A stretch of DNA of 63,574 bases, filler included, from Jimgerdemannia flammicorona (lineage: Eukaryota): the NCBI GenBank assembly GCA_003990765.1. It is 3 parts of 3 records of this genome, joined end to end, with 100 filler letters (N's around TTAATTAATTAA, not from the genome) between each part and the next. Parts side by side here need not be neighbours in the genome. Positions count along the whole stretch, not along the records: positions 42,455 to 63,574 come from RBNJ01001526.1; 2 more parts are not named here. The stretch is one strand, 5' to 3'. Positions within the stretch are counted from its first letter, which is position 1; the number at the start of each line of letters is the position of its first letter. Of the stretch, positions 21,135-62,300 are shown one piece after another. Below the pieces are notes generated by a model. That model worked only from the letters and a program-made list of their open reading frames with translations, ran no database searches and was not told where the DNA came from. The translations under genes and the position numbers were made by a program.

Positions 21135-21234
21135 NNNNNNNNNNNNNNNNNNNNNNNNNNNNNNNNNNNNNNNNNNNNTTAATTAATTAANNNNNNNNNN
21201 NNNNNNNNNNNNNNNNNNNNNNNNNNNNNNNNNN
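21135..21234. other. Assembly gap with artificial TTAATTAATTAA linker
   Basis: N run with a central six-frame-stop linker. Same design at 42355. Confidence 0.95.
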
Positions 21235-24494: not shown

Positions 24495-24525
<31 letters not shown>

Positions 24526-24655: not shown

Positions 24656-24656
24656 A

Positions 24657-25395: not shown

Positions 25396-28300
25396 ATCTT
25401 TCTCTAGTATAATTTGAATTATACAAACTTCTGACAATACTTTCAGTATCATTTTTAGAAAAAAGGTACTATTAATATAGCAACTGATGAGTGTTTTAAG
25501 AAGTATGCTAGGTAGGGAGACTTCAGTACATTTGACTAACAGTATATAGGAAAGAGTTATAGATTAGAAGAGAGTCTGTTGGGTACTCTCTCTGGTGAAT
25601 AAGAAGGTGGTCAAGGTGAGTCTAGTCAACAGGGGTCTGAGAGGATGAGCTTTACTAATAAGGTCAATATAGAGCATCTGGTGACTAGATTAGAGAAATG
25701 ACTGCAGAAGAACAAGAAGAAGAAGGGAGCTATAAAACTTAGTGAGGGAGCTCATAGTGGTAATAGCAGTAGGGCTAGAGGAGTAGAGACTGGAAGAAGT
25801 AAGATCATTGATAGAAAGAAGACTACTAATCTGAAAAAAAAAAATCCAGATGTAATAGCTGATAGTGAGACTGAGCTGAGAGGGGGTCTGAGGTCAGAAG
25901 ATCTGACTGATAGTATAACAGGTCTGGTGGCAGTACTGTTACTCAAGAAATCAATATTTGAATTTGCTATCACATTGTACTTCTGAGACTTAGTAGTTAT
26001 AGCCAAAATAGTTCTAGGGCTTTTAGTTTAGGAGATAAAAGAAGCAGTATTATTGAAGTTTTTGAAGAGTTTAGAAGAAGTAGAAGTAGACTTTGAGGAG
26101 AAGGAGTTGATGTTGAGAGTATTAGAAAATAGAGTAGTAGTGAGAAGAGTGACAATTTCTATAGCTTGATATCTATACTGAGACCCTCAGATAGTGCAGC
26201 TGGTGGTAGTGAATATATCTACAGTAAAGAAGGAGATAGCCAGAGGGTTGATTGTTAATGTTATCAAGGAATATGACAATGTGATAGATGTTAGATTCAG
26301 GGTCTGAGAGGGTATAGAGTTCAGGACTAATAATATGGATATTAGAGTAAGACTGACAGATAAGAAGAATACTGAAAAAGAAAGAGATTGGCTGATAGTA
26401 CTTAAGTAGAAGCTAGTGGAGTATAAGATCTCAGGAGTAAAATGGATATCAGAGGAGGAGAAGAACTTACTAGAGATATTGGAGGATCTGGCTGAGATAG
26501 TAGAGAAGAGATGACTGGCTTGAAAGGAGTTTGAAACTAAGATAGTAGTAGAAATTATAAATGGCAAGAGAGTGTATCTGAATCAGATAGCCTAAAAGAG
26601 GGTATAGAGGAGATAGCTTTAGTAAGAGTTATTAGCAAAGCTGAATGAGAAGGTAGCAGGAGAAAATACTATTAAAGGAGTTATATTACAGACCAGTGCT
26701 TAGGCTGGGAGAAGGGAGTAATATCTATAGTAGTTCTGGAGAAGAGTGGAGGCTCTGAGCAGAGTGTAGTGGTAGAGGATGAGGTAATAGTAGAGGAGGT
26801 ACAAATCCAGTATAATGTGCCCTCAGATAGAAGAAGACTAGATGAGTTACAGAATATGCTAAAGGAAGTCTGAAATGAGTCAGTAAGAATGAATGCTGAG
26901 AGAGGTCTGAGGGTTGGAGGGCAGAAGACAGCTCTTAATATTGATGAGACCATTGGTAAGGAGAGATAGTTATAAAAGATACTGATGAATATTATAGCTA
27001 ATAAGTTGAGCAAGATTGATTTCTATATAATTAGTAAGTGATACTAGAGAGAGATCCTACAAGGTGAAGAAGTAGTGAGGAAGCTTCAGGATGAGCTGAT
27101 AGTAGGGCTGTTGGAGGCAGAGAAGTATGAGGTAGATGGTAATAGAGAGGCAGCACTTCTGGGAATTATGAATAACTATGCAACATATCTATAGAGCCAT
27201 AGAAAGAGATTAGCAAAGTAGCAGGTAATATATAAGGAGTACTGGTCTAATATAAAAGCTGTAGATGGTAAGGACTATTGGGAGATCTTGGCAGCTCTGA
27301 ATATTCAGCAAGGAGAGACTGAGGAGCTTGAGGTAGAGAGGAATCTGGATATTACTGATGATATAATAAGTATGAAATTATAGAGTAGACAACTTCTCCT
27401 ATAACAATTATTTAATATAAATAGTACAACTAGAATTCTATCTTTAAACATCAATGGGTTACAGGGTGTAGTGAGATATAAGAATATTTTCTGCTGGTTA
27501 AAGAGGCTTAGTGCTCCCAATAAATCAAATCAAAGGTCTAATTTGAACCCTATTTTTCAAAATATAATAACTCAATGAATACATGTCCAAATTCAATAAT
27601 CTTTAGCTTATTAGATTTCTCTTATATAGAGGAATCTAACAAGCTAAAGATCATTGAATTTAGATATATATATTCATCAAGTTATTACATTTTGAAAAAT
27701 AGGATTCAAATTAAACTCTTAATTTAATTCAAACTTAATTTGAATTGAAAAATCCCCAATTGGATTTGATTTAAATAACTCTCAATTTGATTCAATTTGA
27801 ATTAATTCAATTCATTTAGAAGTACTAAGGGGCTGAATGTGAATCTGTTTCTGCTACAGGATGTTAGATATGATATAGACTTAGATATGCTAAACTAGAT
27901 AAGAGAATAGGATAGAGCAGCTGCTTGGTAGAGCTGAGTGGATATTTTGGTTAAGAAGAGCAAAGAAGATATTGGAGATATTGGACATTAAGGGGGCAGA
28001 GTGATATAGGGAGTATGGTAGAGACTAGGCTAGAGCTTCTTAACTATTGAGTCTTATTATTGCCCAGCAGAAAGGAGAGAGTATATAGAATAAATAAGAA
28101 GACTCTAAGATGCTAGAGTAATAATAGAGGCAGAATAGACTATTTGAGTGAGAACTTTAATATGATTTGAGATAAATAGTTGGACAGAACTGATAGAGGA
28201 AAAGAGATAACTGGAAGGAGTAGAGATATTGAGGGCTGAGAGGAGATTGAAAGATTGAGCTCTCTGGTGGATACAGGGTAACTTGGGTAAAGGAACTATT

Positions 28301-40600: not shown

Positions 40601-42354
40601 GCCCGAGATAAGTTAGCGCGGGGGGGATTGATTGGAGGTAAACAAGTGGGCGGCGTGAATAAGGGGGATGGACGGTGGTGAGTTTTTTGGGCAGGTGGGG
40701 GGTGGGTTTGCATGTGGACAGCATATGGGGGGGGGGGGGGGGGGGGGGGAACCAGGGAACCCAGGAAGGAAGAAAAGTTCTTACAAGAAGTCTAAAAAGA
40801 AGTTTTTGGTTTTATTTGGAAGGGGCTGAGAAGGATGTGGTGGGTGTTTCTCGGTGGTCGGATCGTGCGGAGCGATGCGGGACGGGGTTAGTGGGCTGGC
40901 AAAAATTATTTCGTGAGGGCAGCATTTGGCGGTGGGGATCAAGTGACGGGGGGGTTCCGGTCATATGCCCCGCTGGTCAGCTAACCCCGTTTCGGGGGTG
41001 ACCGAGCAGGCATTATAAGATGAGGCAGGCAATGTGCGGAGGAGAGGGTTTTTCGTTGTTGTTGTCGATATTATAACCGGAGCTGTTGCCAGGCACGTCC
41101 GTCCGCCCGTCCTTCCCGCCGCTTCCATACACAACAGGCCCTGTGGATCCCGTCCTGCGTTCGTTATATTCGTCCACGTCATCGACCGAATCCAGAGTGC
41201 GTGTTTAATTTAATTGCACCCCGACCCAACCATCCTGGCCTTGGCTGTGTCTAGACCTCTCTTTTTTGACCACCCCACACTTCCCTCCACCTCTCAACCC
41301 CCCACCCTTACACCTTTCCCCCATCCCCCCACCCCCACAGCCCTCAACAACAATCTGACACTGCTCAAAGGAAAATCCCCTAAAAAAATACACCTCCACC
41401 TGCCCATCTTGTCCCCCTTCAGTGCTCCAGTGGAACTAGCCCATCAAGTGAACAGTTCCATCTAAGCACTCGTTCCTAGTTCCCCCACAATTCCAGTCTA
41501 GCCGACCGGATCCGCTCTCTACCCTTCTTTTCCACACTCCCAAAACCTCCCCCAACCCTGTCTCCCTCCTCTCCTGGTGTCCGTTCAAAACCTCCCCGAC
41601 TCGACTCGACAACTCGTAGCGGAGAGATTTGAACCTTGACCAACCTCCATTTCACTGTCACGACGAGAAAGCCGAACACGCGAACTCACCTTCGCTCGTT
41701 CTCTTATCGTCTGCCCCTACCACATTTGCTTTGAGCTCAGACCCCTCACGCTTGTCGGGACCTAGCTCGAACTCATCGTCTGTGACGTCTCGCAGAGGAA
41801 TGTCAATGACCCATCAACCGGCTACTGGATCTCTATAAAGCCGATCGACCTTTCGTTTCCCAAGCTCCGTATACCTATTTGCTTGACACCTTAATTTTCC
41901 CTATTTCCTCTTATAATTTCTCCTGTATCATAGCCGCTCTACATAACTTGCTTTTATTGTTCTCCTCGCTTGGCATCATTTATTTATCTCCGCTTCACAG
42001 CTTAATATCTTCCCCCACAAATCCACATCGCTTTTAGTATCCCTTTTCTAAACAAAAACACTCTATCCACTACGTCCACCAAGATGGCCCTCTAACGCTC
42101 TCCTTCCCCTCTGCAAAAAATTTGCAAAAACCCCTTTCCCTACCCCGTGAAAATGATCTTCCTCCACATCGCGACCTTCGTTCAGAGTTGTACCGACTCG
42201 CAATCATCCTTCGTCACCAAACACATCCACTCTCTTGATCTCATCTCGGCTATTGTCGCCACCCCTACAACAACATCGAACTTTCTTTGCATACCCACCT
42301 CAGTCCTCGCGTAGTCCACCCTTTTTTTACACACACATCGCACGAAGATTTTTT

Positions 42355-42454
42355 NNNNNNNNNNNNNNNNNNNNNNNNNNNNNNNNNNNNNNNNNNNNTT
42401 AATTAATTAANNNNNNNNNNNNNNNNNNNNNNNNNNNNNNNNNNNNNNNNNNNN
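42355..42454. other. Assembly gap with artificial TTAATTAATTAA linker
   Basis: N run with linker. Confidence 0.95.
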
Positions 42455-42981: not shown

Positions 42982-45048
42982 TCACAGATCTATCATACCC
43001 GGACCGGCGGATTTTTTCTTCTCTTTGGCGTTAGCACCTCCACCGCCTCCTTTGCCACGTTGTAGCTTGCGCTGTCGCGCTTGCTCCATTTCTTCGCGCT
43101 CACGTTGTTCTTCACGCAAGTCTTCGAGGCGAGCTAGTTTGGCACTTTAAAAGCATGGCCGAAAGTAGGTACCCTGGTTGTAAGATGGAACTGGACGAGG
43201 AAAACCTCCTTCGATTGACAAGTGTATGAACAAGGTGAATGGAATTGGATATATACCTTCGCTGCTCCTCACGCAGGACGTCTGACGCACCAGCTTCCAT
43301 GTCCTCATCCGAATATTCTTCATCACGGTATCTGTCATTGACATAAGGAAACCAAATGTTGGACGCATTGCGGGTGTGTGGGAACAACAAATCCTTCCTC
43401 ACCGTTACAACAAGAGTGCATGTACGGAAGCACACTGGTACATTTCCACCCAATTGCAACTCACCTTTTCCTATCGTAATTAAACATCCTTCCAATTATA
43501 CTCCTTGCGTCGAGTACCTCCTCGTCGTCATCGTCGTCGTCGTCGATGAATGAATCCATATCATCGTCGTCATCTTCATCGTAGTATCGTCCTCGGCGAC
43601 CACGGTCAGGTCTGCGCGTAGAAGGTGGCGGCGGAGGCCGTCTTCTCGGCGGGGGTGGGGGCGAATGACGGCGGCCAGAGGGTGGTGATCTCGACATAGG
43701 ACGCCTCCGCACTCCGTTCGAAGCAGGTACAGGTGAGTGATCTCGACGAACTCCATTCTTTGCCCTCGTGGATGTGGAGGATCCTCGTGCAGTCTGGACT
43801 GGCCTCTTCTGGTCGCTATCGTCCTCTCGGTCTCGATAGCTAATCCGATCCCTATCTCTGTCTCGCTCTCTCTCTCTGTCCCGATTCCGATCGGCTGTGC
43901 CACTTACGAATCCAATCCTCCCTGCACTTGTCGTCCGATTATCTCTCGAAACCATCCCATGATCGTTTCTGTGCGAACTAGGTCCAGATTTACGCTTTGT
44001 CATATCTTCCTGAATTTCTTCGACACTTCGCAGATCGCGCTTGTTCGTGTTAAGCCGTTGCGGAGGAGCTAAAACTGATGCTTTCAAGCGATCGCGGGCC
44101 GAGGCTCCACCAGCAGATGAAGAAGTGCCGCCGTTGCCGGTCGAACGAGAGACGTTCGCGGTGCGTTTAGAGCCGTAGATGGTGCCATTAGTTAGCCTTG
44201 CTGGACTAGCGACTCGGCCGTTCCCGCCACCATTAGTATGGGATCGAGGATTAGCAGCGGACGAAGAAGATCCGGAGAGTCGTGAAGATATCGCTGACGC
44301 ACTGAGCCGTGTGCCACCAAGACTGCCGTTTCCATGCAACCTGCCTCTATCTCTATCCCCAACGGATTTCCGAGAAATGTCTGTATTGTTGTTGATGTCG
44401 CGAGAATTCCCTCGCGCACCCCGGTCGTCCATCTCCCTGTCCCTGTCCCTGTCCCTCTCATTTCCTTTCAATGTAGGACTACTTCGCGACACCCCTGTTG
44501 ATGGACCCACACGTAAAGCTTTGGCGTCAATAGCGTCCGCTTGTTTCAGAAGTGCGTCAAAAGAGAGGTCCGCTGATTTCTGTGCGCGAGTTGTACCAAT
44601 AAGAAATGGCACAAGGAACATAGTCAGGGTCAGATAGACCATGGTTCGGTTGGCGTGACCAACTCGGAAAACCAAGAAAAATAAAAATGCAAAACCATAA
44701 GAACATTGAAAATCTCCGGCGACCTGCCTTCTTGTCTGGTTTGGCACTCAACCCAGCTGTTCGCCCAAAACCGCCGCTGGAGGTGTTTGATTTTCCGACG
44801 CCAGGTCTGTCCCTGTCACGCTGTTCTCTTTCTTTTTCACGCTTATCTGCTTCGTCTTTCCTACGCTTCTCCTCCATTGCCCTTCGTCTTCTCCGTTCGT
44901 CTGCTTCTTTTTGTTCCCGGCGTCTGCGTTCTTCGTCCCTCTGCTTACGCTGCTCCTCTTCATGCTGTCTGCGTTTCCGGCGTTCAATATCCTTTTCGGC
45001 CTCTTTTGTGTTTGATGAGGCCATCCTGAGGATCTCCTCGAATTCCAT
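42982..45048 (-). CDS. SPT2: SPT2 chromatin protein / histone chaperone, 4 exons
   Basis: ATG 45048 (MEFEEIL), charged coiled coil, low-complexity middle. Spliced C-terminus DMDSFIDD...IGRMFNYDRKRYRDEEYSDEDMEAGASDVLREEQRSAKLARLED. Stop at 42982-42984. Confidence 0.9.
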
Positions 45049-45125
45049 TGTGTGAGGCGGGTGAATGGGTAAGAAACAGCGGGGGTGGCGATGTGTGGTC
45101 AAGCGAGTTGGGTGAGTGTTGTGGT

Positions 45126-45201
45126 GGGTGACGTCACCCTGCATATTGGCTTTGCGGATATAATTATGGGGCATGCCAGACAAAGTGAACATGTGACGTC
45201 A
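45126..45201. promoter_or_regulatory. Divergent promoter with two CRE-like TGACGTCA sites
   Basis: Palindrome GGGTGACGTCACCC at 45126-45139 and TGACGTCA at 45194-45201, between ATGs at 45048 (-) and 45247 (+). Confidence 0.5.
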
Positions 45202-45246
45202 TATACAGTGATGTTTTGTTTTCATTTACTCACACACAACCCTATA

Positions 45247-47272
45247 ATGTACGACAATGGACTCAAAGGTATGATAAATAACATATTTGTATTCGTTCGA
45301 GAAAGCAAATATAGTATAAACTGGTGATATTTATCAAACTTTGAAACTGATCAAACCACTGGCAGCAGACCGAGCAGCTCAAACTGTTCTTTATCTTGGA
45401 GAAATACACACTGTTGGATTTTCTCCAGTATGCTGACGCGACCAAGTACTTGGCGCCAAAAGGGGAAGCGCACCGCCAATACATGATATTACTGGAAAAC
45501 ATCAAGCGTGCAAGTGGTGGACACTATGACAGAGAGAGCTTCTCAAGCCTTATCAAATTTTCAGGGGAGTTACTGTAACTTTTTATGTTATTTTCTTTAA
45601 AAAGAGCATCCGGTCGAGTCCGGTAATCCTGTTGTCGAGTCAGTGGGCATACTCTAATACCTGGAGGAGTGTGCTAGGTCGAGTCTGAAAGACCCCTGTC
45701 GAGTCAGGGAATGCTGCTTCTGTGTGCTTTTTAAGTCTAGTTGAACATAATTAACAACCTCTCTCTTAATTTTAACAGCTTGAAGCAAATTCATCCGAAG
45801 TGAAAGGATCCTGGCAGAAGAAAAATGCATATAACCTCGTTCAACAATCGGCTATGGACATTGTGCAAAATATCATAAAGTAGGTCAGCAAGGTGCAAGA
45901 AACAACAACAATGTATTGGCAATGGAAATATAGGAACAACTGAATAATCTAAGGCAAAGATCATCAGGTATGCTTATTATTTAATTTTATAGCATCATGT
46001 TATTATGTGAAGCAAAGAAATGTTGAACAAGTATATGAGAGATCAGATATCGGCTCATACAATTTAGATGAATCAAATTCTTTCAACGCGGTAAGATTTT
46101 ACCTGATAACATTGGTGATTCTCATACTTTTTATGTTATCACATATGTCCAACAGCTGCCGGGTGACAACGAACAAGCGCATTATCAGTCAACAATGAGG
46201 TACAGGAAAATTCTTTGCCGTCTTCCAACGATGATGTCGAGTGTGAGTTTGGTACAAAAGATCTAGAACTTTTCACAAAACGGTATGTTTGTCCTTTCAC
46301 TCTTTTTTCGTCCGAAATTGCAACTTGAATATTTACTATTTTATAAAAATTTGAAGGATGAAGCCCGCCCACAAATGGAAACTTAAAAGTGGAAGGACTA
46401 TTGAAGATATTTTATATGAGTTGGGCAAAAGGTGTAATAATTATAAGTATTTCAAAACCTACTCTTCTGAAAAATACATAATAAATATTATGATAGTTAC
46501 TTTAGTCTAGTCCATTCTTTCATAATCGATCCAGAGGACGAGTACATACGCTCTAACTTTACTGAAGAAGAGCTAAGCGAGGTTGTGCATGAAAACTATC
46601 GAGCTCCTTCAGATTTGGATCTGAATTTGCTCGAGTTTGTGAGCTCCTTTGCCAAGGCAAATAAAATAGTATACCCTAAGTGCTTTTTTCTTTCGCCTCT
46701 TCTGTCAATCTACAACACGTGATTTTATAATATACAGTCGAGATTCGAGAGGAGTTAAATCGTCCGCATCCAAAGCTAGGGCGAGACTACAATCCAAAAA
46801 CAGATTTCCTTACCATCATGTCAAGGCAGCCGTCGCCGACTGGTAAGTAATCAACATTTTTCCAGTAGATTGACGCTGCCACAATGGATTGAAGTCTCGT
46901 CACTCTGAACAGCAGTCTAATGTCTCTCTGAATTTGTAATCTTGCAGGGTTACGCTCCTAGAGTCAGACCCCAACCCTCTCGTCTTAGACCTTCCGGAAG
47001 CTTGGGATCGAACGAATGTCTAGCGATGCATTGACATGGCGTTTTCAGACGTTCATTACGGTTTTGTTATTGGGTAGGATGAATTATAGTAATAATCTAC
47101 GAAGTTGTGCGCTACTTCTTTTAACTTTGCCTTGTGCCTTTTTCGTTTTAGAGGTGAGAGGGCTGGTGTTGCTAGCACAGAGAGGGAAAATCTGTCTAGA
47201 ACACTGGGAAACGAAGCTCCTATGCAACGCAAATCAGTCAGGGAAAAGGGCGACGGATACGTGAGGAATGTG
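45247..47272 (+). pseudogene. Multi-exon Mucoromycota-type hypothetical gene (possible Crinkler/REase-fold family), decayed and truncated by a LINE
   Basis: Exon peptides KWKLKSGRTIEDILYELG, HSFIIDPEDEYIRSNFTEEEL and GERAGVASTERENLSRTL..RKSVREKGDGYVR. Short introns and internal stops. Family assignment is from motif recall only. Confidence 0.55.
45597..45734 (+). ncRNA. Candidate structured intronic RNA or TTAA-bounded insertion with four G-UCGAGU-C stem-loops
   Basis: GTCGAGTC at 45613, 45634, 45678 and 45698, each the loop of a short stem. Central hairpin. Closing stems AGCAT/ATGCT and TTAAAAAG/CTTTTTAA. Confidence 0.5.
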
Positions 47273-47274
47273 GG

Positions 47275-48960
47275 ACAAAGATTAGGGGTCCACATTGGGA
47301 TGGTGAAAAAGGCACGAAGACAGTGTAGGCGGGATTGGCTAGACACTAGTTGTATGTGTTTGAAGATGAGAGGTAGATAAGTTTAGAGAAGTATTTGGTG
47401 AGATGGAAAGAGTTGTTAAGAGATGTTATATCTAGCTAGTGGATTCAGGGAGGTCATTACTAATACTTAGTAAAAGAGATTTATATGTAGAGTAGGGGGA
47501 GAATTAGAGTGGTTGATGGTTTAGTAGTCTTTAATTATGAAGAAATTGAGAGTAATTTCTCTAGGAGGATTAGTTAGGAGTGGGGTTACTGTAGACAGTA
47601 GAGTGGTATGAGGTGTACTCTGGGGCTAAACTCAATTAGCATAAGTATGAAATAATAGTGTTAGGCAATGACCTGGTGGGAGGAGATGTCATTGGAACAA
47701 TTATCCTTACTGGGGAGGCAGTACAGTACTTGGGTATCTATCTATCAGTATATAGGTCAATTCTATTGAGACCTTGGTGGGAGCAGAGGGTTGTAATCTG
47801 GGAGAAGGCCCTGCAGAGTTGGAGAGGACACTACTTGTCTCTAATAGGATATGTTTTGATTTTGAACATCTACTGGCTGCTGAAGCTGTGGTATTTAGCT
47901 TATCACCTGAACTTTCCAGCCTGAGTGGTGAAAAGACTGATGAAACTGGCTAAGAGGTGAATCTGGGCCAAAAGAAGGAGTCAGATCAGCTGGGAGGTCT
48001 TGTTTTTACTGATGACTAGAGGGGATCTTGGGCTGGTTGATTTTCCAAAGAGACTATATTATCTGAGAGTATAATAGCTGAAGAGAGTGATAGAGTTGAG
48101 AGAGAGTAGTTGAGTTCTTCTGATGCAGAAGATCTGAGAGATGAGATCCTCACCAAGAGGCTCTATAAGAGATCTACTATCCTTGGTTAGGCTTCAGAAT
48201 AATGGACATATATAGTATAAAGGCTTCTGGTGAGGGATAGTGAATGGGGTATACCATATTGAAATTTGCTAGTAGAGAAATAAAGGAGAGATACCTTGGA
48301 ACCCAGTGATGTAGAGATAGGACCAAGTGTTATTAGAGGATATCTCTCTAGTTGACTTTGATATTGACAATAGAATTAAGTACCAGAGGGGGCCAGAACA
48401 GGATCTATAACCTAGTAAATAACAGCTGGCAGATATTAGAGAGGAGTGAGACTGGAATGGGATTTGGGTCTAAAGTACTGAGGTATAGTAGTAGCTACTA
48501 TCAAAGTCTGGTGGTATATACTATAGATGAATATTATACTCAACTTTTACTTGAGACACCTTATTAAGGAGGAAAGCTTTGACTGTGAGGAGTGCTATAA
48601 TGTAGGATAGGAAGGGGAATTTATACAGATACTTGAATATTAGCTAGAAGAGTATAAGGTACTTAGTAACTTTTGGCTAGCTGTTAGAGATTAATTAAAT
48701 ATTATATATAAAGAAGATGGTAAGTGAGATCAGTAAGAGGATTTGAGAGATAGATTGGTGGGGGGGGTGAGAAAGGAGTAACTTACTTTAGGTAGGATAT
48801 TAGTAGTTTGAGTAGGGCTGATAGCTCACTGGTTATTTGTTTTCAAGGAAGAGAGGTGTCTGAGTTTGGGAGTGTAGTTATTGAGATAGCAAGAGCTAAT
48901 AGAGAATATATATTATGATAGGCTAGTGGCTTGGTTGGAGTTTGTAGAATGGTCAGAGGC
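47275..48960 (+). mobile_element. Two abutting LINE family A ORF2 3' fragments
   Basis: YLGIYLS and LNIYWLLKLWYLAYHL motifs shared with the other copies. Junction near 47595. Confidence 0.75.
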
Positions 48961-49687
48961 ATCACTAGAGAAAGGGCCAAGAAGGTAGTAGTGGTCTCAG
49001 CTAAGCTTTAAATATTTTCTTTGATAATGATGAATAGTTTACACATCTTATCAATCAATATCAATGGATTGTATGATGGTGTTAAGAGGCAGAGGCTCTT
49101 TTTATAGCTTAAAGTCAGAAGATATGATATTGTTTTTCTTCAGGATATTAGGGCATATGGAGAGCAGGACTTTAAGGTGTGAAGTAAAGAATGGTATGGT
49201 GGAATGGGTTGGAATAAGCAGATGGATATCTTGGTTGGTATAGATAAAGGTGAGCTGATAGAGGTTGAGGTCTATAGTGATAGATTGGTGTGGGGAAGGC
49301 TAAAAGGAGGAGCAGGTAATGGTCTAGCAGTAGGCTCAGTTTATCTCCCTGCTGTTAGCAGAGAGCAAAAGTAATGGGTTGAGGACTGGTGGACTTGGAA
49401 AGGTCAGGAGGTGGCTGCACTAGACATTCTGAGGGGGGATTTTAATATAGTACATAATTGGGTACTGGACAGATCAGATGGAGGAGCAGATATAGTAGTG
49501 TCCTCTGGGCTGTCTTGGTGGCTTCAGATAGAGCATGATATGAGACTGGTGGATAGTATCTATTAGCATCAGAGAGATGAGTCAGGATCTTTCACTTAGT
49601 GGCACCTGGTTGGAAACAGATTGATTGGGACATGAATTGATTGGGTGCTGGTGGGTAATATACTGGATGTTGTAGAGGTACATTGGT

Positions 49688-50721
49688 GGGTGCTGCTATT
49701 GCAGAAGGTATGGGAGATGAGATTCTCTCCTCAAGGGTCCTTGGGAGATTTGTTCTCTTTGGTAGGGCTGAATGGAAGTCAATGGTTGTAGTTTAAGGGC
49801 TTTTGATAGAGAGTGGTAGATGGAGTATACAGAATTGATCTGTACTAGTAAGATAATGAGGGGGAGATAATATGGGGTTCTAATATATAGTGATGAGACA
49901 GACTGCTTCTGAGGGATGCTCTGCTTGCTGAGTTTGATATTGGGGATAGAGTGGAGTGTCAGCAGGGTCTTGGCCAGGATCTTTGGCTGAGTGGCTGGTA
50001 GGCAGCAAGAATTGATGAGGAGTGGGACTGAGCAGATATCTGGTTATAGAGTGCTGAGGTACAGAGGTGGCTTTCTCCCAAGTTCTAGATAGTATAATGG
50101 AGAATGCTATGGAGGAATGTCATATTGAATTTCTATACAGGGCATCTGGTGGAAGGTAGCTAGTTAGATTGTAAGGAGTATTATAATATAGGGTAAGTTG
50201 GGGGATTTGTACAGATGCTGGAACATTGGCTAGAAGAGTATGAGGTTTTGGGGGACTTTTGGATAGAAGTAGGAAATAGACTGAGTGTAGAGAGAAGGCT
50301 AAATGGTGTGAGAGGCCACTGGGAGGATTTAAAATCTCAGCTAGTGAGTGGTATTAACAATAGTTGGCTTACTGTAGGGTGGATTTTAGCAGTATAGGTA
50401 GGACTGACTAGTTGTTGGCTCTTTGTTTTCAAGGAGGGGTGACAGATGGATTTATAGAAGAAGTTGTTAAGGTAGGAGGGATTGATGGGGGATTGGGTGG
50501 GTGATGTCATGGTCTGGTGGAAAGGATCTGTAAATAGAGTAGTGGGTGGGTGGAGATGGTGTTAGACAAAGTAGTCTTTTATCAAGTGAGAATGGAGGGG
50601 AGGGAGTTCTCTTAGGGGGATCAGATGAGGGGTGGGCTTAATATATTTATATGGGATAGATGGGTATTAATAAATAAAGGAGTCTAAGTAACTATAAAAA
50701 AAAAAAAAAAAAAAAAAAAAA
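49688..50721 (+). mobile_element. 5'-truncated LINE family A with poly(A)
   Basis: TSD AGGTACATTGGT (49676-49687) / AGGTACATTAGT (50722-50733) and the family 3' motif. Confidence 0.9.
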
Positions 50722-53678
50722 AGGTACATTAGTACCCTTGGTCAGATCATTGAGAAGTGGAGGTATGTGGCAGATTCCAAGCAGCAGGCTATAGAGGAGG
50801 GCACTGGCACCTCAATGTGACTCTACTCAGGAGGAAGAAGAAAAGAGATCAGTTTGTGGATATTATGCAACAGAAAGTAACACATTGACAGAATGATGGG
50901 CAGTTAATAGCAGAATAGTGGGGTAAATTCAAACATTTGGCTGGTGCTTACTGGTAGGATGTTGGTGAAATAGCTGGAAAGGAGTAGAAGGACAAGGAAA
51001 GGAGGGTAGAGAAGAGACTGAGATAGTGATTAAATCTAATGGAAAGGGGGAATCTGTCTAGAAATATGTACTACTAGCTAGCAGTGGAGGTGGTAGAGCT
51101 GTAGGCTGAATTGAGAGTAGCTGAGGATAGGGCAGTAGATGGCCTGCTTGCCAGGCTATGGGTGAGGTGGTTGGAGGAAGATGAGAGGCCAACTAAATAC
51201 CTATCTGGAATTTTGAAGACCAGAAGAGTGCAATATAGCTGAGCCTCAGTTTTATATAAAGATGAAATGGAGATCTCTGAGATTACTGATATATTGAGAG
51301 AGGTCTCAGGACAATGGCAGGCTCTCTGGCAGGATAGAGGAGAGCATGCAGAGGATGTGGTGCTTAGAGAGGATGCTGATAATATGGTGAACAATTGGTC
51401 AGTAGTAGTAATACCTGAGATAGGCGAGATAGTGATAGGGGAAGTGTCTTTAGATGAAGTTCTGGAGATATTGCAGAAGACACAGACTGGTTCATCACCT
51501 GGGGAGGATGGGCTACTCTGGGAATTCTGGAAGGAGTTCAAGGCTGAGTTTGGTGGCTGGTTAGTAGAAATGGCCAACTTTGTTCTAAAGGAGAGCAGCT
51601 AGATTGGCAATGGCTTCTTGGGATTAGTTTCCCTCCTATATAAGAAAAAGGGTAATTGACAGGTGTGGTGAAATTGGCAACCTATTATGCTGCTAAATGT
51701 GGATAGAAAGCTGGTCTCAAAGATTCTAGCAGGGAGAATGTAGCAGTATATAGATATGCTGGTTAGTGAAGAGCAGTGAGGCTTTATTAAAGAGAGGCAG
51801 ATCAGAAATAGTATAGCTTAGGTGCAGAATGTCTTAGAAGGCTGTAGGAGCTAGCAGGTGGATGGTAGGATGGTTTTCCTGGATCAAGAGAAGGCCTATG
51901 ACAGAGTGAGGTGGATTTACTTAGAGGCCATTCTGAGGAAGGTTGGATTTGGAGTAGCAGAAGTAGAGAGATTGATGGGTTTAGTATAGGAATGCAGAGT
52001 GGCAGTTATGATGAATGGATGGCATGGCCTGGAGTTTGCTTTGAGGTGTAGAGTGCCACAGGGGGACCCTCTCTCCTCCCTCCTTTATATACTCTCTCTG
52101 GAGCCATTGCTGGTATGATTGAAGGAGCAGCTTTCTAGACTGCAAATGGGTGATGTGGTCTGGAAGCTAGGTGCTTTCACAGATAATATGGTGGTTGGGT
52201 TGGATAGTATGGAGGATGTGGACCTCTTGCAGGAAGAAGTTGGACAGTATGAGAGACTAGCAGGGGTGAAGCTGAATTGGGGCAAGTGTGAGACAATGGA
52301 ACTTGATGCTGGTCTGGGGGAACATGGACAATTTGGACAATTGGTGGCTCCTGGAAGTACTATTCAGTATCTGAGTATTTGGTTCTCAGTATATAGGACA
52401 GTCCTACCAAAGGAGTAATGGAGTGGCATAGTTCAGAAGTTGGAAGGTGCTTTGACTGATTGGTCTGAGAGGAGTTTCTTCTTGATAGGCAGGATTGTAG
52501 TCTTGAATATATATTGGCTGCCAAAATTATAGTATCTAGGGTATCACCTGAACTTTCCAGGGTGGGTAGTACAGTGGCTGAAGAAAATTGCGAAAGGCTG
52601 GTTATGGTATTAGAAGTGGCTACAAGTTGGGTGAGATGCATTGATGATGCAGATAACTGATGGCAACCTGGGGTTGGTGGACTTCAGGCAATGGCTGAAG
52701 GTACTTAGAGGTTAGTGGGGGTGCTGATTGGCTGAACTAGATGAAGGGGGCTGGGGCAGGCTGGTGATGGACAATTGGGAGATTCAGCTCTACCCCCATG
52801 GTGAGGTTTGGAAGGATATGCAGGGTTTGCTTCAGGTTAGGAATGTCAGTTGACTATGGTATAGGAGATTCTGGTGGGATATAGTAGAGGCCTGGCTGGC
52901 CATGAGATTGGCAGAGCCAGAGATGGGGGTTGGTGAGGATCCTGAGCAGAGATGGTGGCAATTGAGAGACCTCTGTATTGGTGGTCATAGTCTGAAGGAG
53001 TACTCATTGATTGAGATGATGGAGTGGATCAGGTCTGGCCCCCTGGAGAGATGACTGGTAGATTGGCAGAAGGCAGGATTGGGTAAAGGCTGGGAGTGGG
53101 GCTGAATCTGGGGTTGGGGAGCTGCCTTGTTTAAGGTAGTATCCCCTAAGTACTGAGTTATATAGTGGCACTTTATGAGAAGAAATGTGATGTTGGGGTA
53201 TCAGACAGGATGGATGGAGATAGATGGCTGTAGAGACTACAAATAGTATAGTGAGGTAGATAATAGGGTGGTTCAGTCACTGGAGCATGTTCTGGTAGCC
53301 TGCCCTGGTGTAGAAGAGTTCTGGCAGTATTTGGAAGATTACTGGTGCCCTGCTGGTAGAAGGACAGGAGATCCTATCAGTCTGGTGGTCAAGTGCCAGC
53401 TGGTGGGGGAGATAGGAGATATCTGGGATAGCTTTGGTCGAGTTCTGGGGGTCTAAGTTCTGATGGCAGTATATTGGAGATAGGTGTTTGAATAAGACCC
53501 ATGATTAGAGATTGGTGAGCTAGTAGAGCAGTGAAAGTGGCTTCTTTAAGAGATAGTATAAGGGTGGTGGTATCAGGAGAGGCAGCTTCAACCAGGGGCC
53601 TTGTAGAAGGTGTAGGACATTATCCAGCAGAGTAGAGGACACCTGGTACTAGATGAGCATGGGGTCAGGTGGAAGGAA

Positions 53679-54110
53679 TAGTACTCCCAATGAATCAAAT
53701 TGAATCAAATTAGACTCAAATTCGATTTGATTTGAAAACTTCAAATTGAATTGAGGCCTAATTTGATTTGAATCAATTCAAATTGAGGTCTAATTTGATT
53801 CGAGATCTGATTTGAACTCTATTTTTAGAAATTAAATAACTCAATAAATATACATCCAAATTCAATAATCTTTAGCTTGTTAGATTCCTCTTATATAGGG
53901 GAATCTAACAAGCTAAAGATTATTGAATTTGAATATATATTTATTGAGTTATTACATTTCTAAAAATAGGTTTCAAATCAGACCCTCAATTCAATTCAAA
54001 TTTGATTTGATTCGAACTCAATTTGAATTGAAAAATCCCCAATTCGATTTAATTTGAATGACCCTCAATTCAATTCAATTTGAATTGATTTGATTTGTTT
54101 GGGAGCACTA
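53679..54110. mobile_element. hAT-like fold-back MITE, copy 2
   Basis: TIR TAGTACTCCCAA / TTGGGAGCACTA, perfect 8-bp TSD GGAAGGAA, pentamer subterminal repeats and a long central palindrome. Confidence 0.9.
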
Positions 54111-54222
54111 GGAAGGAAGATATTGGATAAGTAATCCTACCTATATATAATATGTTATAGTAGTAGTTTGTGATTAATTTTCATTGTAATAAGTATTTTA
54201 GATAGTCCAAATAAAGGAGTCC

Positions 54223-56358
54223 ACTCCATCTACAATCTAACCAACCTATTAGAGGCTCACCTTATCCTTCTCCTCCTCTTACCTCTAGTATTTCTACCAG
54301 CTCTCTCTCAGTAAACTCATGATACTTCTTCAACTTTATCCACTGGATACCTACTGGTATACCCTCATATATCCAACAAGCAATCATCTCCTATATATCC
54401 TCTATTCAATAGTCCTACAGTTCTTTCTCAGCCAGCAGAGAGAAGTTAAGGCATCAATGTCTGGGTCTATCTCCACTCTCCCCAAACTGCCCCTATCTTA
54501 ACAGACCTCAATAATCTGACCATAGGTACCACTCTACCTCTAAGATCCTCCAAACATCTACCTCCCAGCAATCAGCTGTCAGGATCCAGTGAATTCTTGT
54601 ACCCAAATCATTTATCCAGTATCTATAGATCCTCCTTTCTCTCTATGATGTTCTACCCATATCCCCTAAGGAGCAAAGATTCTCCACCTCCTTCCATGCA
54701 TCCAGTCCATCACTCCTCCCCCCAGTATACCTCTCACCATCTGTTCTATCCACCTGAGGATTTTGAACTATATTGAAGTCCCCACCCATCACATCAACTC
54801 TATCCTCCAAAAGAGCACCTCTTCTCTAAAAGATTCTTGATCAAAACAATCTGCTCATCCTGATCAACAGAGCAGTAACAAGAGCCCACCCTCACTGATT
54901 TCTATCCAGGTTGATTCCATTCTCTCCATACCAACCAGTCTCTCTAATTTCTGATTCAATTCAAAGCTCCTTTACCTCTTCTCATCAGAATTATCACTAT
55001 GCCAATCCAAGCTACAGCATCACCCCATTTCTTAGTTCACTCTTCTTGATCTAGATCATCTTTACATTGCACATCCTGTAATAGAAAGAGATTAGCCTCC
55101 AAACTCTTAAGCTAAGTAAAAATGTTCTTGTGCCTCTCAGAGCCCTGTAGCCTATTCATATTGAGAGAAAAAATATTGGTTGTACTGTTCATTGAGAATA
55201 ATGTTTTTGAAAAAAGTCTCTATACTCTCTCTACTACTTCATCTCTATTCTCTCCTGTGCTAAGTCCAAGTTATATTTCTCAGCCCACTCCTCCTCCTCA
55301 ACTCTCCTTGCCTTCAATCCCTCCAGAAACTTATTCAGGTCTCTCTCTTCCTTTTCCTCAAAATCTACACAATACTTCTAGCATACATTCTGCTAGAGCT
55401 ATAGTCTATATTGTTCTACCCAGTAGTAGGCTGCTTGCTCACTAGCCACTACAGCCAGCTCAGCCCTTCTCTCCTCATCAATCTCATACACTTTCTTCTT
55501 TAAAAAAACTGCAAGTACTTCTGCCTTCAGTGCCTCCACCACCCCATCACTATACAGAACTCTTGCCTATTGCTCATCACTCATAACTCTCAGATCCACT
55601 TCTTCCAACTCCTCAGCCACAAAGTTATTTATCATCTAGCACATCCAAAGTAAGTTCCCCACCTCCTTTCCCCCCAGGTGTTGCTGGCCATCTCCCATTC
55701 AGCATCATTATGTCAGCCCCTATACTTGCAGTCTCATCCCTCCCTTTCTCTAGAATATCTAACAGTTTCTCCTCACTTATTGCCACCACCTGTCCCCCCT
55801 TGCTCCATCTCAGAAACTCTAAATCACACTCACTGGGCCAAGTATTGGTATATCTACTGTCTCCTATCCCTTTACAGCAGGACCCCTCTTGATAAGTGGG
55901 ATAGAGAAATCCTCTCAGACTTCTTCTCAGACTTCAAACATGCCATCCTTGTATGGGTTCATGCTCAGTGCCTTCCCAGTTTCTGCTAGGCCCACCTCCA
56001 CCCCCCCACTACCTTTACCAGTCCAGACACTTATCTTTACTCTCTCAGTATCCTTACCACTACCAGCAGACTTCTCTGTCTCACCCCCCAGCTTTGTCAG
56101 CAGCTCCCTCTGCTGCTTATACCCCTGGGACCTCTCCAACATCTTCTTGTCAACCCAAATACACTTCTCATCAACAATCTCCAAGTGTGTTATCTCTATA
56201 TATACTTTCCAAGCCTTCACCCTCCTCTCTCTAGTACTACTCTGCTCCTCCAATACCTTCAGCAGATCCTTCTCCTCCTCCTTCTCCTCCCTCCCCTTTA
56301 CCCTTGATAGCTTACAGATAAAGACTCTCCACAATATGACCAAAGGCCAGTCACTCAT
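54223..56358 (-). mobile_element. LINE family A internal fragment (ORF1 3' half and EN)
   Basis: DWPLVILW..KAWKVY ORF1 motifs and an MNSTTNIFSLN ORF2 start near 55192. Confidence 0.85.
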
Positions 56359-56359
56359 T

Positions 56360-59300
56360 ATAATAACTCTTACTTCTATCTCTCTCTTATCCTTTGGATA
56401 CTTAGGGAAGTAAGACTATTACTTAGAGACTTAATATACAATATATACAAAGAGGCTTTCAGTTGAGGAAGCACTTACTTAAAAGTAGTTATAGCAGTAG
56501 TACCTTATCTTTTAAAGGTCTTTCTGGTTTGTTCTATCTTTCAAGAGTCTTGTTTTTTACTGTACACAGACTGAATTTACCTTAGAATTCAGATTTAATG
56601 AATTTTCTTAAGTCTTTGGGAGTTTATATACTAGTCTCAGTTCTGGCAGAAGTTAGCTAGACTTCTGGAGTTTAGTCAGAAATACTAGAGTTACTTAGAT
56701 ATCATTACTAAGACTTAGGAGAATGTGTGTATATAGGGGGAGACTTGATTTTTATATTAAGGACTGAACTAAAACTGATTTATTTTAAAGGATACATATT
56801 TATACAAGTTGGTTCATGATTTCTGACTAAGTATAAGTGACTAATTTGGTAACTATAGAGAGGTTTGTGATTATGACCTTTGTCAGATAGTTTGTAACAA
56901 AAATAATTTTATAATTAGGATCTCAATTACTAGGTAATAATCAGCTACTATGGTAATAGTTACTGTAGCTGTTATTGTAGCACTGATTGTTGGGGGTAAG
57001 CTGAATATTATTTTTTATACCATTTCACATTGTTCATTATGTTTATCATTTATAATATTATATGTTATGCTCAATTATATGATGTCATTGCTCACTGGGT
57101 CATGTAATCACTCATCTCATTATATCTCATCTATTTGCTAATTCATTTTATTACATTCTTTTCTCTTTAGAAATCAATATTCTTATTGATTTAGAAACTA
57201 AGAACCAGGAGAGAAAAAGGTGGGAAATCTTTCTTGGTATTATTGTCATCTTTTCCTATAGCCAAAGGGATGGTTGCTGATAGCTTAGTATCTAGGATAG
57301 AGAAATCAATAAGGTCTGCAAATGGCTCTTGAACAGATATGAGTACTGGCATAAGGGTTCTCTATCTAATACAGTTGGGACCATCCAAGTAGGGCTCTTG
57401 ATTCTTATGCCTAGAAATATCTATTCAGATGGGTGATCCTTCAAAGAGATCAGAGAGTCCTTGGAGTCATTGGTCTGGGTTGTTATTTAGGAGAGAGCTC
57501 TAGTAGGGTTTGCAGTTAGTAGACTTGAGAGTAATCCAGAAGCTGGCTTCTTGGGCTATCTTAATTTCTAACTCATCAACTTTAGGGAAAGAGAGGTTCT
57601 GAAAGTCCTTCAGTTGTATATAGTTGAGGTTGGGAATTATAAAGGATGTATGGTATATAATTTGATGGACCTTCTTAGCTAGTCTTTACTTGTGCCTATT
57701 CAGGTAGATTCAGTCTGAGACCTGATCAGTGGGTAGGTCTTTAGCATGTTGAAGAAGTTGATGGCCAATTTCATATTTATACCAGATCTCTAGATAGCTG
57801 GTAGCAAGGTAGATCCTTTCAATAAGTTCACAGTAGTCAAGAACATACTGTCTTAGATTCTGACTGGAGAGGTTAAGGGCCTCAGAGTGACAGTTCTTTC
57901 CTTAGATAGCAACCTGGATATATCCAAAGAGGCAGTTAATCTGGCTTGGGAGAGGCTGGCTATGATGGGCAGTTTGGTAGCAGATAGCAGATATTCTTAT
58001 CTTATCTTTACTTTATAGAGAGAGGAGAATAAGAGTTGTAATATATTCTTGTCTTGGGTATTTATACTTATTCATCTGTCTGGTGTGACTATAATTTGGT
58101 CATACTTTCCAGCAGAATGTGTGATCTGCTGCTATAAGTAGAGCATATACTGGTCATTTGAGGAAATCTTAATTTTAGAGATATCACTACTTGTAGTTGT
58201 AGTTATACAGAATTGACAGATCTTATTCTTCTTTTTTTTTATCTGGTTGGTGTATTTGTGAGGACTGGCCATCCTTGTCTAGGGCAAGGGCTCCCATTGT
58301 CACAGCTGGAGATTCAAATCTCTCAGAAATAGTATTTCTTGTAATCTGAGGCAATTTTTAATAACAATATCTGTTATGTAGATAGGCTTAGATTGGTTTT
58401 AACATTGTTGGCTTTCTTAAGTTCTAAATGAAGCATCTGTCATATTTAATAGAGATGATACAGATAGTATAAAAAAGAGTTGTTCAAATGTATTTTGCTA
58501 TACTGTACTGGATTATTCCTCACTTGAGGCTTTTTCTTGGTAGTTAGTTATAGTATCTATTTTTCTGCAATGTTTAGTATTGTATATTCCAGGTAAAAAT
58601 ATATGATGTCTTCATATCATTACTGTATGCTCTAAGCTTTAGAGTTATAGTTCCTTTCTTTACTAAGGAGTAAGTATATCTATATAGTCCTGAAGGGCTT
58701 TACATGTATTCTTCAGAGCTTCTTCTTTTTTCCAGATAGTATTATGAGTGGGGTAACCTTTCTACTTGATGAGAAAAAACTGCTTGACCATTTTGGGATA
58801 TTTGTGGACCTTGTGGTCAAGTACTTCCTCAATTTTGAATTCCTTATAATTATTGATCCTAATTGGGGGTGGTGGTGGAACTGTATACTTAGAAAAAGGT
58901 TTTTCATAGTAGTCTACTAGCTGGCTGATATGGAAGACTGGGTGTATTTGAATATTATAGAGAAGTTGTAACTTGTAGTTACTTTGCTGACTTTTTTTAC
59001 AATTTTATATAGTCCAATACTTCAAGCATAAAGTTTCTTGGCTAGTTACTATACTAGGATATCTGGGTGAAGATGATCTATTTTAAGCATAACTATGTTA
59101 CCAATATTGTAAGAGAATTCCCTTTACTTCAAGTTCACATACTTGGTCTGGTAGTCCTGTGTCTCTATAAGAGCATCTCTTACCATTCGAGTAAGGTTAG
59201 AAATGGTCTCAGCCAGATCTTGGACTACTAGGACTACTGATTTCACAGTGGTACTCAGGGTCCTTGGGTGTTGGCCATAGTTCAAGAAGAATGAGGTCTT

Positions 59301-62300
59301 CTTTGTAGAGGTTTGCTGGCTATTGTTATAGGCAAACTTAGTATGGGCTAAATACTTGTCCCAATTATTCTGCTTATAATAGTAGAAGATGCTGAGTATT
59401 TACTTGAGAGTTCTATCAGTTCACTCAGTTTAACTATCAGTCTGGGGGTGGTAGGTAGTAGAGAACTTCAGTTTGGTTCTGTGGAGAGAGAAGAATGTCT
59501 TCCAGAAGTTACTTATAAACTTTGTATCCCAGTCAGACCCAATGGTGCTAGATATGCTATATAATCTAAATACTTGATTGAGGAAAATCTCAGCAATCTC
59601 AGATACTGTTACAGTGGTCTTAATGGGTACAAAATGGGCTTGTTTGCTAAGATGGTCCACAAATACTATAATGGTATCTCATCCTGCTTTGGTCTTAGAG
59701 AGCTGGACAATAAAGTCTATTGAAATCTGATCTCAGTTATGACTCAGGATAGGCAGAGGTTGCAGGAGTCCTGCTAGTAGCTTGTTACTACTTTTGAACC
59801 TTTAGTATATCTTGTATGAGACCATAAAGTTTTTAACATCCTTGATCATCTTTACCAGTAGAAGTCTCTTGAGAGGAGATTGTAGGTCTTTTCAAAACCA
59901 AAATGTCCTGCTACAGGAGTGTCATGGAGTTTCTCTATGATCTTGAGTCATAGAGTATCATTATTGAGTACAACTACTCTGTTATAGTCTCTATAGATAA
60001 GTCCATCATGGTAAGTGAATCTCTTGGACATTTTCTTCATGGGTTCTGAGACTTCAGCCTCTGAGTTTTGGCAAAATTGAAGGAAATTCACTAGAGGGCT
60101 GTCTTGTTGGTAGCTATTCTTGATTATCTGAGTAAGGTCTCTAATTATCTTGACTATAAAGATAAGTTCATCTTCCATATATCTAGAGAAATCATCAGTC
60201 ACACAGTTGGTTTTGTCTGGGATATACTCAATTTCCATACTTAATTTCCATATCAAAGTTAATAATAATTTCCATCTAGCAGGCTTGTCTGTAGGTTAGT
60301 ATGAGCTATATATAGATATATCACAGAGTATGGTGATCAGTATAGGCTATAAATGGTTGTCTTAGAAGGAAGTAGTACTATTCCTAGAGTAAGTAATAAT
60401 GGCTAGGAGTTTCTTCTCATAAATAGTATACTGGGTCTCAGCTGACTTAAGCTTTTGAGAAAGGTAGACCACTGGGCAATCCTTCTGGCTGAGTACTGCC
60501 CCAATAGTGATATTAGAGGTATCTGTGGTCAGGGTGAATGGTCTGGTAGGGTCTGGTGTAATTAGTACTGGAACCTTGGTAAGGAGTCTCTTGAGGTAGT
60601 CTATAGTCTGAATATACTCAGGAGTCTATTCTATCTTAATGTTTACTCCTTTGTAAACCAGACTAGTCAGTGATACTGCAATAGTAGAGTATTCTTAGAT
60701 AAACCTTTAGTAGTAACTAGCAATATCCAGGAAGTATTGGAGTAACTTGAGAGTAGTGGAAATGAGAATATTCTTGAGGGCTAATACTTTTTGAGAGTCT
60801 ATATTGATATCTTCAGTCGAGATAATATGTTCTAGATACTCAATCTAGTTTTAATAAAACTTCAACTTACTTATCTTAGTATAGAGCTAGTGTTCTCACA
60901 GAAGAGTCAGTACCTATCTGAGATAAATATAGTGTAACTCTACTGTTTTACTATAGATTAGTATATTATCAATATATACAAGAATATAAATGTTGAAGAG
61001 TGGTCTAAAAATGGCATTTATCAGATACTAGAATATTACTAATATATTGGTCAAACCAAAAGGTATGACTCAGAACTGATAGTATCCAAACTATATTTGG
61101 AAAGCTGTTTTTTCAATATTCTTCTCATTAATGAGAATCTGGTAGTAGATATTTTAGGGAAAAGATCTTGGCCTTGAAGATTTGGTGTAATAACTTATCA
61201 ATCCTGGATAAAGTATACTGGTTCTTGATAGTAATCTTGTTGAGAGCTCTATAGTCTATATATTTACAGAGAGCTATCCTTCTTCTTGATAAATAGAATA
61301 GGGGCTCCAAATAGAGAGCAGCTAGATTCAATATATCTCTAGGCCAGTAGTTTAGTCAACTTATTCTTGAGAGTCTTGAGTTCAGATTGGGTCAGCTGAT
61401 AGATACTCTTGTGATCCTGGATTAAGATTAATTCCATATTGGATTTAGTACTTAGGTGGAAGTCTCTTGGAGTCCTGAAATATATCTTGGAATTCCTCAA
61501 ATAGTTCTTAAGCTTCTGTTAGGATTGGGCTACTTGGGACTTTGGTAACTTCTTGTATAGTACAGATAAAGTATATATTTTCTTTTTTTTGAGAGAGTCT
61601 CTTCATTTAGATGGTTGAGATGATTTTGATTTCTTAATAGTTAGTATCTTTCTGGGGTGTCATGATCTTTCTGCCTTCATGGATCAGGTTAACCTCATTG
61701 GTCCTCTAATTAATATCTGGATTATATTGGGTCAACCAGACTTTTTCTAGGATAATGTCTTATCCTGGGAGATCTACTATACTGAAGTCTAACTTCTCTT
61801 GATATTTGTCAATCTTGGGCAAAAGATCTTTGCAGATCTTAGTCAATGGTGTAGTCTTACTATCACTAAAGATAACACTCCTTTTCTCAGTAGTTGGTCT
61901 GCTTTGGGCTTCTATTCTCTTAGTAGTCTTGGTACTGATATAATTTCTAGTAGTACTACTATTAAGCAAGATATTAACCTTCTATCTATAGACTTGGCCT
62001 GTGAACTTGATACAACTGTCCTCCTTTTTGATAGTGTTGAGTTCTTCATTTTCATTGTTGTCCCAATTGCTATCAGTCTTCTCAAAGTCAGTTTCTTTCT
62101 ATTCTTTACAAGAAGAATTATTTTGTTTAGGCTCCTCAGTTTATAGGACTTAGCACTTTTTAGATTAGATTTTGAAAACTTTGGAGAGATATATATGATA
62201 TTTACCAATATGTTCTATACAGTATATTTAAATAAAATGAATATTGTCTATATGATACATAACTATCTATAATTCTCTTATATCAGTTTTCATTATCTTC

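Follow-up and report, generated by a model that had tools for sequence, protein, structure and literature searches.

The locus described here lies in the genome of Jimgerdemannia flammicorona (assembly GCA_003990765.1), within a stretch of 63,574 nts joined from three genomic parts, hereafter called the window, of which positions 42,455 to 63,574 come from record RBNJ01001526.1. In this last part, on the plus strand, a 214-nt intron (45565 to 45778) of a gene encoding a hypothetical protein contains a 138-nt block (45597 to 45734) that carries four exact copies of one octamer, GTCGAGTC. The cluster of four octamers is real, non-random and constrained, and the block is tentatively interpreted here as a small mobile-element insertion, possibly read by a protein.

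Information on splicing comes from contigs of two public runs, X1 and X2, which are only guessed to be RNA and which behave as RNA at the 7 listed joints, 6 of which have canonical ends. These joints belong to the host gene and its neighbor, and the runs do not cover 46461 to 48400, so that they have no bearing on the annotated 3′ exons. An X1 contig joins 45564 to 45779, which defines the intron with a donor CAG/GGGAGT and an acceptor AG at 45777 to 45778, three letters (CAG) fitting both sides of the joint. The left boundary carries a G for the T of the second donor position and otherwise matches the standard donor. Another X1 contig, of 271 nts and without differences, passes through the intron unspliced with exon sequence on both sides. 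The mean word depth, a rough contig figure only, reaches 20.8 along the path that stays unspliced and 7.8 along the joined one, the flanking exons having about 41. In our reading, 45565 to 45778 is a real intron with a crippled donor, the block being retained in many transcripts, and the GG donor together with the unspliced contig possibly represents a natural case of donor crippling with intron retention. An insertion of 45565 to 45775 with a CAG duplication was also considered and rejected, as it lacks terminal repeats and its right boundary is a genuine acceptor that is used in X2.

The upstream exon (45367 to 45564, plus strand) contains the open frame annotated as the hypothetical protein P0001, and the downstream exon (45779 to 45967, plus strand) is joined onward to 46156 in both runs. 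In X2, an alternative intron of 667 nts with GT..AG ends (45112 to 45778, plus strand) uses the same acceptor and skips both the upstream exon and the element. The X2 contig joining 45111 to 45779 (44728 to 45111 and 45779 onward) also covers an oppositely oriented SPT2-like gene, and reflects either a head-to-head transcript overlap or the merging of two genes by the assembler. As a practical point, neither of the models annotated for this gene (P0001 and P0002) agrees with the transcript contigs between 45258 and 47022. P0001 skips 45575 to about 46496, and the contig-supported exons 45779 to 45967, 46156 to 46282 and 46357 to 46460 all fall inside this P0001 intron, while one P0002 exon falls inside a contig-supported intron.

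The host product is a hypothetical protein of J. flammicorona (P0001, 100% identical, and P0002 from a second isolate), and these two proteins of the same species are its sole relatives. The 68 residues of the upstream exon match P0001 only, among 1.84 billion representatives. The first-pass annotation had labeled the host a putative nuclease-fold gene and had proposed its protein as a possible partner of the element. Both ideas are unsupported, because a Pfam search on 5 exon pieces gave nothing above chance, the relatives are restricted to the same species, and the structural models are poor. The Atlas model of the host protein has a predicted local distance difference test (pLDDT) score of 0.39, with matches of at most 0.80, and the AlphaFold2 model of P0001 (pLDDT 37.5) is all-helical and too poor for a fold search. 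No nuclease family or fold was detected with Pfam or in either model.

The four octamers are located on the plus strand at 45613 to 45620, 45634 to 45641, 45678 to 45685 and 45698 to 45705, and these exact positions bear out the starts and the 21/44/20 spacing first reported for them. They belong to two subtypes, type A with the core GGTCGAGTC (octamers 1 and 3) and type B with the core TGTCGAGTCAG (octamers 2 and 4). Along the block the two types alternate as A, B, A, B, with a central hairpin placed between the second and third octamers. The whole window contains 6 copies of GTCGAGTC against 0.74 expected, a number reached in 0 of 100 shuffles, and the remaining 2 copies overlap each other in a (GACTC)n run at 41598 to 41610. 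This run stands at the end of a C-rich, low-complexity stretch (41300 to 41610). In the 63.5-kb window, GTCGAGTC is the sole 8-mer with at least 4 copies inside 100 nts at a spacing of at least 12. The hexamer TCGAGT taken alone shows no enrichment (13 sites in the window against 14.8 expected), so that the octamer signal is the cluster itself.

The two halves of the block agree in their cores. Copies 1 and 3 share 9 nts and copies 2 and 4 share 11 nts, which makes 20 identical positions out of 20, whereas the spacers that separate or follow the cores resemble each other no better than shuffled sequence does (p 0.87, 0.18, 0.91 and 0.25). With identical cores and unrelated spacers, the pattern is not one that simple tandem duplication produces, which argues that the cores are constrained or were made by a specific process, rather than being left by the decay of a tandem repeat. 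In this respect the initial description holds, since the motif is constant and asymmetric and its flanks differ in sequence while being self-complementary. A neutral by-product of local duplications or slippage, with no reader at all, is for its part improbable. It would account for the resemblance of units 1 and 4, which agree at 12 of 22 positions outside the octamer and are the only pair of units to do so, for an octamer equal to 1.6 units of the pentamer GTCGA, with the (GACTC)n run 4 kb away in window coordinates, and for the plain tandem arrays that make up most of the triple-octamer matches listed from the metagenome and viral scans described below. However, Tandem Repeats Finder returned 0 rows at the block, the spacers are unrelated despite the perfect agreement of the cores, and the dyad flanks of the octamers are significant. 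The 8-bp target duplications of hAT-type elements were also considered as a source of the octamers and cannot hold, because the octamer copies interleave.

Beyond the G...C pair of the octamer itself, the flanks of the four copies form 3, 1, 0 and 4 Watson-Crick pairs (sum 8, p 0.001), or 3, 6, 1 and 4 pairs when G-T is allowed (sum 14, p 0.0006), each value being obtained from 200,000 simulations. The other TCGAGT sites listed in the window (n=8) have just 0 to 1 flanking pairs each. The dyad symmetry about a constant center is real.

This symmetry bears on a reading of the block as a DNA-level cluster of four sites for one sequence-specific DNA-binding protein, all on the same side of the helix, which would work as an enhancer or silencer within the intron. 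Four exact, directly repeated 8-mers are what such a cluster would look like. For a helical repeat of 10.5 bp, the octamers start at 0, 0.00, 0.19 and 0.10 of a turn. The block is also placed about 670 bp from a divergent gene pair, within what is the first intron of the X2-type transcript. Nevertheless, phasing of this kind would arise by chance in roughly one case in ten by our own estimate, and a protein reading duplex DNA would not account for flanks that pair with each other without being conserved. Because the free-sequence dyads are left unexplained, the phased cluster is the less likely reading, and we regard it as unlikely. No known motif was matched to the octamer, and the papers listed for the octamer string contain it mainly in primers. 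A Zn-cluster site of the CGG-N6-CCG type was rejected, since its fit is limited to octamer 1.

Among the pairings initially proposed for the block, CCGG/CCGG, CCCTG/CAGGG, the central GCATACTCT/GGAGTGTGC, AGCAT/ATGCT and TTAAAAAG/CTTTTTAA are real. The stability of the proposed hairpins on the plus strand is uneven. Hairpin 1 (CCGG/TCGAGT/CCGG, 45610 to 45623) folds alone at -5.9 kcal/mol and hairpin 4 (CCCTG/TCGAGT/CAGGG, 45694 to 45709) at -8.5 kcal/mol, with 13 of 200 shuffles as good in both cases. Hairpin 2 (CCTGTTG/TCGAGT/CAGTGGG, 45628 to 45647), in which 3 of the 7 pairs are G-U, is marginal at -3.2 kcal/mol alone, 94 of 200 shuffles being as good, and the last G of its stem, G45647, is also counted in the central stem as originally drawn. 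The proposed hairpin 3 (TAGG/TCGAGT/CTGA, 45675 to 45688) does not fold alone (0 kcal/mol). The central hairpin (45647 to 45674), in which GCATACTCT and GGAGTGTGC enclose a 10-nt loop, reaches -13.4 kcal/mol, with 1 of 200 shuffles as good. Hence, of the four octamer hairpins first described, the first and the last are stable and the two others are marginal or unfolded, and the credible hairpins are 1, 4 and the central one only.

A specific multi-hairpin RNA has no thermodynamic support. The five-hairpin fold amounts to -30.8 kcal/mol, or -33.0 kcal/mol when hairpin 3 is left out, against a minimum free energy (MFE) of -44.7 kcal/mol, and thus lies 11.7 to 13.9 kcal/mol above the MFE structure. 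The latter is a long fold-back in which the left half of the block pairs with the right half, the octamer palindromes being engaged intramolecularly. In the ensemble, pair probabilities are at most 0.02 for hairpins 1 to 4 and 0.98 for the central hairpin, which disfavors the five-hairpin RNA of the first-pass annotation. Neither is the element unusually stable as a whole (z-score -1.32, 25 of 200 shuffles as good), the central hairpin alone standing out from shuffles, and the proposed fold is not dominant. The suggestion that the non-canonical pairs mark the transcribed strand stands for the central hairpin, which reaches just -5.6 kcal/mol on the minus strand. For the block as a whole, the gap between the strands (MFE -44.7 on the plus strand and -32.1 on the minus strand) is mostly compositional, since the shuffle means, -39.7 and -29.4, are separated by a nearly equal gap.

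These results weigh on the possibility that the block is a host RNA element, which would expose up to four UCGAGU hexaloops closed by G-C pairs in unspliced transcripts and would either bind several copies of a loop-specific protein or pair through UCGA. Such an element would explain why constant loops sit on unrelated but complementary stems, why the stems of hairpins 1 and 4 differ by one paired change, G-to-T with C-to-A, and why wobble pairs are found on the transcribed strand. The unspliced contig, which includes the block with exon on both sides and has more than the rough depth of the joined path, and the retention of CpGs are also in agreement with it. In addition, the formation of kissing dimers by the coronavirus s2m element is reported to be driven by palindromes of four bases in its loops (PMC8789046). 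Against this stand the energy of the five-hairpin fold and the low pair probabilities of its octamer hairpins, an unfolded hairpin 3 and a hairpin 2 no better than shuffles, the ordinary z-score, and the mostly compositional nature of the strand difference. Moreover, no Rfam match was obtained at the block, there is no covariation evidence because no homologues were found, and the host gene, an orphan restricted to one species, has gene models that conflict. A host RNA element is therefore rather unlikely on balance, and it would represent a rare natural array of identical protein-binding loops.

A more specific form of this idea, in which the retained intron displays 2 to 4 identical UCGAGU hexaloops on free-sequence stems as a natural multivalent hairpin array, recruiting several molecules of one loop-reading protein or linking transcripts via UCGA, is distinctly unlikely. 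It would then act much like an MS2-type tag or a condensation signal built into the transcripts of an early-diverging fungus, and a mobile element may have spread it. Known RNA classes were considered as well. A tRNA T-arm or B-box was rejected because the loop is one base short and no tRNA or Rfam match exists, box C/D and H/ACA small nucleolar RNAs because neither their boxes nor an Rfam match are present, and IRE1-type splice sites because flanking hairpins are lacking. ARAGORN predicted 0 tRNAs, and Rfam 15 gave 0 matches at gathering scores over the whole window. With E values up to 10 over 44500 to 46800, Rfam gave no match inside 45597 to 45734 and chance-level matches outside the block only, in keeping with the initial statement that the element is not a known RNA family. 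The papers retrieved on UCGAGU loops deal mostly with s2m and tRNA.

The composition of the block stands out from that of the surrounding intron. Its core is a GC island (45605 to 45715, 54% GC) placed between intron flanks of 28% and 30% GC, the other introns of the host gene having 27 to 30% GC. Without 45597 to 45734 the intron would measure 76 nts, against 74 nts for the neighboring intron. Hence the block resembles an addition to a short intron, because a core of 54% GC is set in flanks of 28 to 30% and the remainder is 76 against 74 nts. It looks like a self-contained GC-rich module added to a short AT-rich intron. The length of the intron had first been put at about 225 nts. By the contig joint it is 214 nts, against 74 to 188 nts for the other contig-joined introns here.

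A perfect inverted repeat of 8 nts delimits the GC island, with TTAAAAAG at 45597 to 45604 as left arm and CTTTTTAA at 45727 to 45734 as right arm. TTAA forms the outer part of both arms, and the boundaries that it sets differ from those of the one joined form seen (45564 joined to 45779). AGCAT follows the left arm at 45605 to 45609 and its complement ATGCT is found at 45711 to 45715. The block has 6 CpGs, an observed/expected ratio of 0.74, compared with about 0.98 in the genic region and 0.00 to 0.03 in the repeat blocks of the window, which confirms the early observation that its CpGs are intact, unlike those of neighboring repeats. The CpGs and the exact octamers would fit a young or low-copy insertion.

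The J. flammicorona genome, of about 240 Mb, is reported to consist of repeats for more than 77% (PMC10386755). In the window, almost no CpG is left at 4001 to 20000, 24001 to 28000 and 48001 to 60000 (observed/expected 0.00 to 0.03). These CpG-poor blocks have an extreme GC skew of about +0.45 or -0.43 (for example 3975 G against 1481 C at 4001 to 16000) and alternate with genic blocks of normal CpG content (0.8 to 1.2). They also carry remnants of the long interspersed nuclear element (LINE) type, with RVT_1 at 11834 to 12307 on the plus strand and a weak Exo_endo_phos match at 550 to 1170 on the minus strand. The combination of CpG loss and GC skew suggests a strand-asymmetric, repeat-targeted mutation process.

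Relatives of the block were looked for in metagenomes and viruses. When metagenomes were scanned for three octamers spaced much as in the element, at least 120 loci were obtained, nearly all of which are tandem arrays, together with one transposon-like family. The same pattern in viral sequences gave 22 loci, all of them tandem arrays. The metagenome family comprises at least 20 loci (L006, L017, L030, L039, L089, L092, L104, L105, L110, L115 and 10 more). Its conserved part begins with CAGTGATGTG and is followed by more than 10 (TC)GAGTCA motifs within about 200 nts, and no transposase frame was seen within the flanks examined, on which no Pfam search was made. This family looks like one DNA-transposon end with subterminal binding motifs.

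We tentatively favor the reading in which the block is a small mobile element of the non-autonomous kind, complete or fragmentary, composed of hairpin recognition sites, a reading to which we would give somewhat less than an even chance. A GC-rich module would have been inserted into a short AT-rich intron. In this module, each octamer would be centered in its own short dyad and would be read by a sequence-specific protein belonging to the element. Since the flanking sequences are complementary without being conserved, recognition would take place on hairpins formed by one strand, of either unwound DNA or RNA. Because the donor of the 214-nt intron is GG instead of GT, the block would also be carried in unspliced transcripts, as a passenger able to fold back on itself. 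The insertion part of this proposal draws on the GC island and on the inverted repeat that includes TTAA, as well as on the high repeat content reported for the genome, and in the metagenome repeat family (TC)GAGTCA arrays likewise adjoin a conserved end. The block is small and without coding capacity, as expected for a non-autonomous element (138 nts, with a 52-aa frame across it that has no relative). If it is a mobile insertion, it would be a small example of intron lengthening in a repeat-laden Endogonales genome. Its design is unusual, with motifs in the same orientation that each have their own dyad, and could point to a hairpin-reading transposase or Rep-type protein.

Several observations weigh against a mobile-element origin. 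The inverted repeat TTAAAAAG/CTTTTTAA is marginal, one as good being obtained in 284 of 5000 flank shuffles. No direct repeat abuts it as a target-site duplication would. The lone duplication-like direct repeat, CTTTTTATGT/CTTTTTAAGT (10 nts with one mismatch), overlaps the right arm and is matched in 660 of 5000 shuffles. All four octamers have the same orientation, unlike the mirrored ends of a classical miniature element, and CpGs are intact in the block and lost in every neighboring repeat block. Furthermore, there is no second copy of the block in the window, and BLAST of 45540 to 45800 against the 120 metagenome loci listed gave a best E value of 0.049 over 31 nts, with nothing beyond the octamer. 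The best E value among the 22 viral loci was 0.027, in low-complexity sequence and again with nothing beyond the octamer. A protein search with the 52-aa frame found no candidate, which is weak evidence on hidden copies. Finally, none of the 64 open frames of the window has a transposase or Rep domain, LINE-type remnants and ordinary genes being all that is recognized there. A TTAA mini-element, which had been put forward from the start as an alternative, is weak in its hallmarks, given the marginal repeat, the lack of a clear duplication and the octamers all pointing the same way.

The content of the open frames also bears on a relic of a rolling-circle or origin-like module, with iteron-like repeats around a hairpin, of the kind that HUH/Rep proteins read in Helitrons or in small circular DNA viruses. 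Direct repeats about 21 bp apart do surround a strong hairpin with a 10-nt loop, the flanks are AT-rich, and the strand-specific pairing would fit the recognition of single-stranded DNA. However, the 64 open frames include no Rep or helicase domain, about 5 of the 9 positions of the usual nonanucleotide are matched by the loop, and Helitron-type ends could not be placed convincingly. We consider such a relic highly improbable.

Two features of the window are separate from the block. A contig joint with CT..GC ends at 44580 to 44727 corresponds, on the minus strand, to a GC..AG intron in the SPT2-like gene. Four short N runs fall within 21134 to 21234 and 42354 to 42454, for a total of 176 bases.

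Compared with known systems, the block shares features with several and coincides with none. Like iteron-type origins, it combines a hairpin and AT-rich flanks with repeats that share one orientation and are spaced by about two turns of the helix. Unlike these origins, it lies in a chromosomal intron, its repeats are 8 nts long, and no initiator gene is found among the 64 open frames of the window. Each proposed loop contains the four-base palindrome UCGA, as in the kissing-loop elements typified by the coronavirus s2m (PMC8789046, PMC12291111). Here, however, the palindromes of the block pair intramolecularly in the MFE structure, the left half with the right half.

The coat-protein sites of MS2 and PP7, the iron-responsive element and the Smaug recognition element of Smaug/Vts1 are hairpins that are read through their loops. 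The block resembles them in that an invariant loop with a G-C closing pair sits on stems whose sequence is free, several times per transcript. It differs in that just 2 of the 4 hairpins are stable and the ensemble prefers the long fold-back, and we know of no reader protein or conservation for it.

The favored mobile-element reading has its nearest counterparts in two kinds of DNA element. The first is the subterminal motif array of the metagenome family, which has many (TC)GAGTCA motifs within about 150 nts. The 10-mer TGTCGAGTCA is common to these arrays and to octamers 2 and 4. Unlike the block, the family exists in many copies, its spacers are conserved and it has a single defined boundary that is conserved as well. 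It has no similarity to the block beyond the motif, and its motifs are without individual dyad flanks. The second comprises miniature inverted-repeat transposable elements and fold-back elements, including the TTAA-targeting piggyBac and Kolobok types. The block departs from these by a short and marginal terminal repeat (284/5000), the lack of a clear target duplication or of a second copy in the window, one-way motifs and uneroded CpG. It resembles them in being small, non-coding and self-complementary overall, bounded by an 8-nt inverted repeat with TTAA, and set as a sharp GC island in an AT-rich intron of a genome reported to be repeat-rich (more than 77%).

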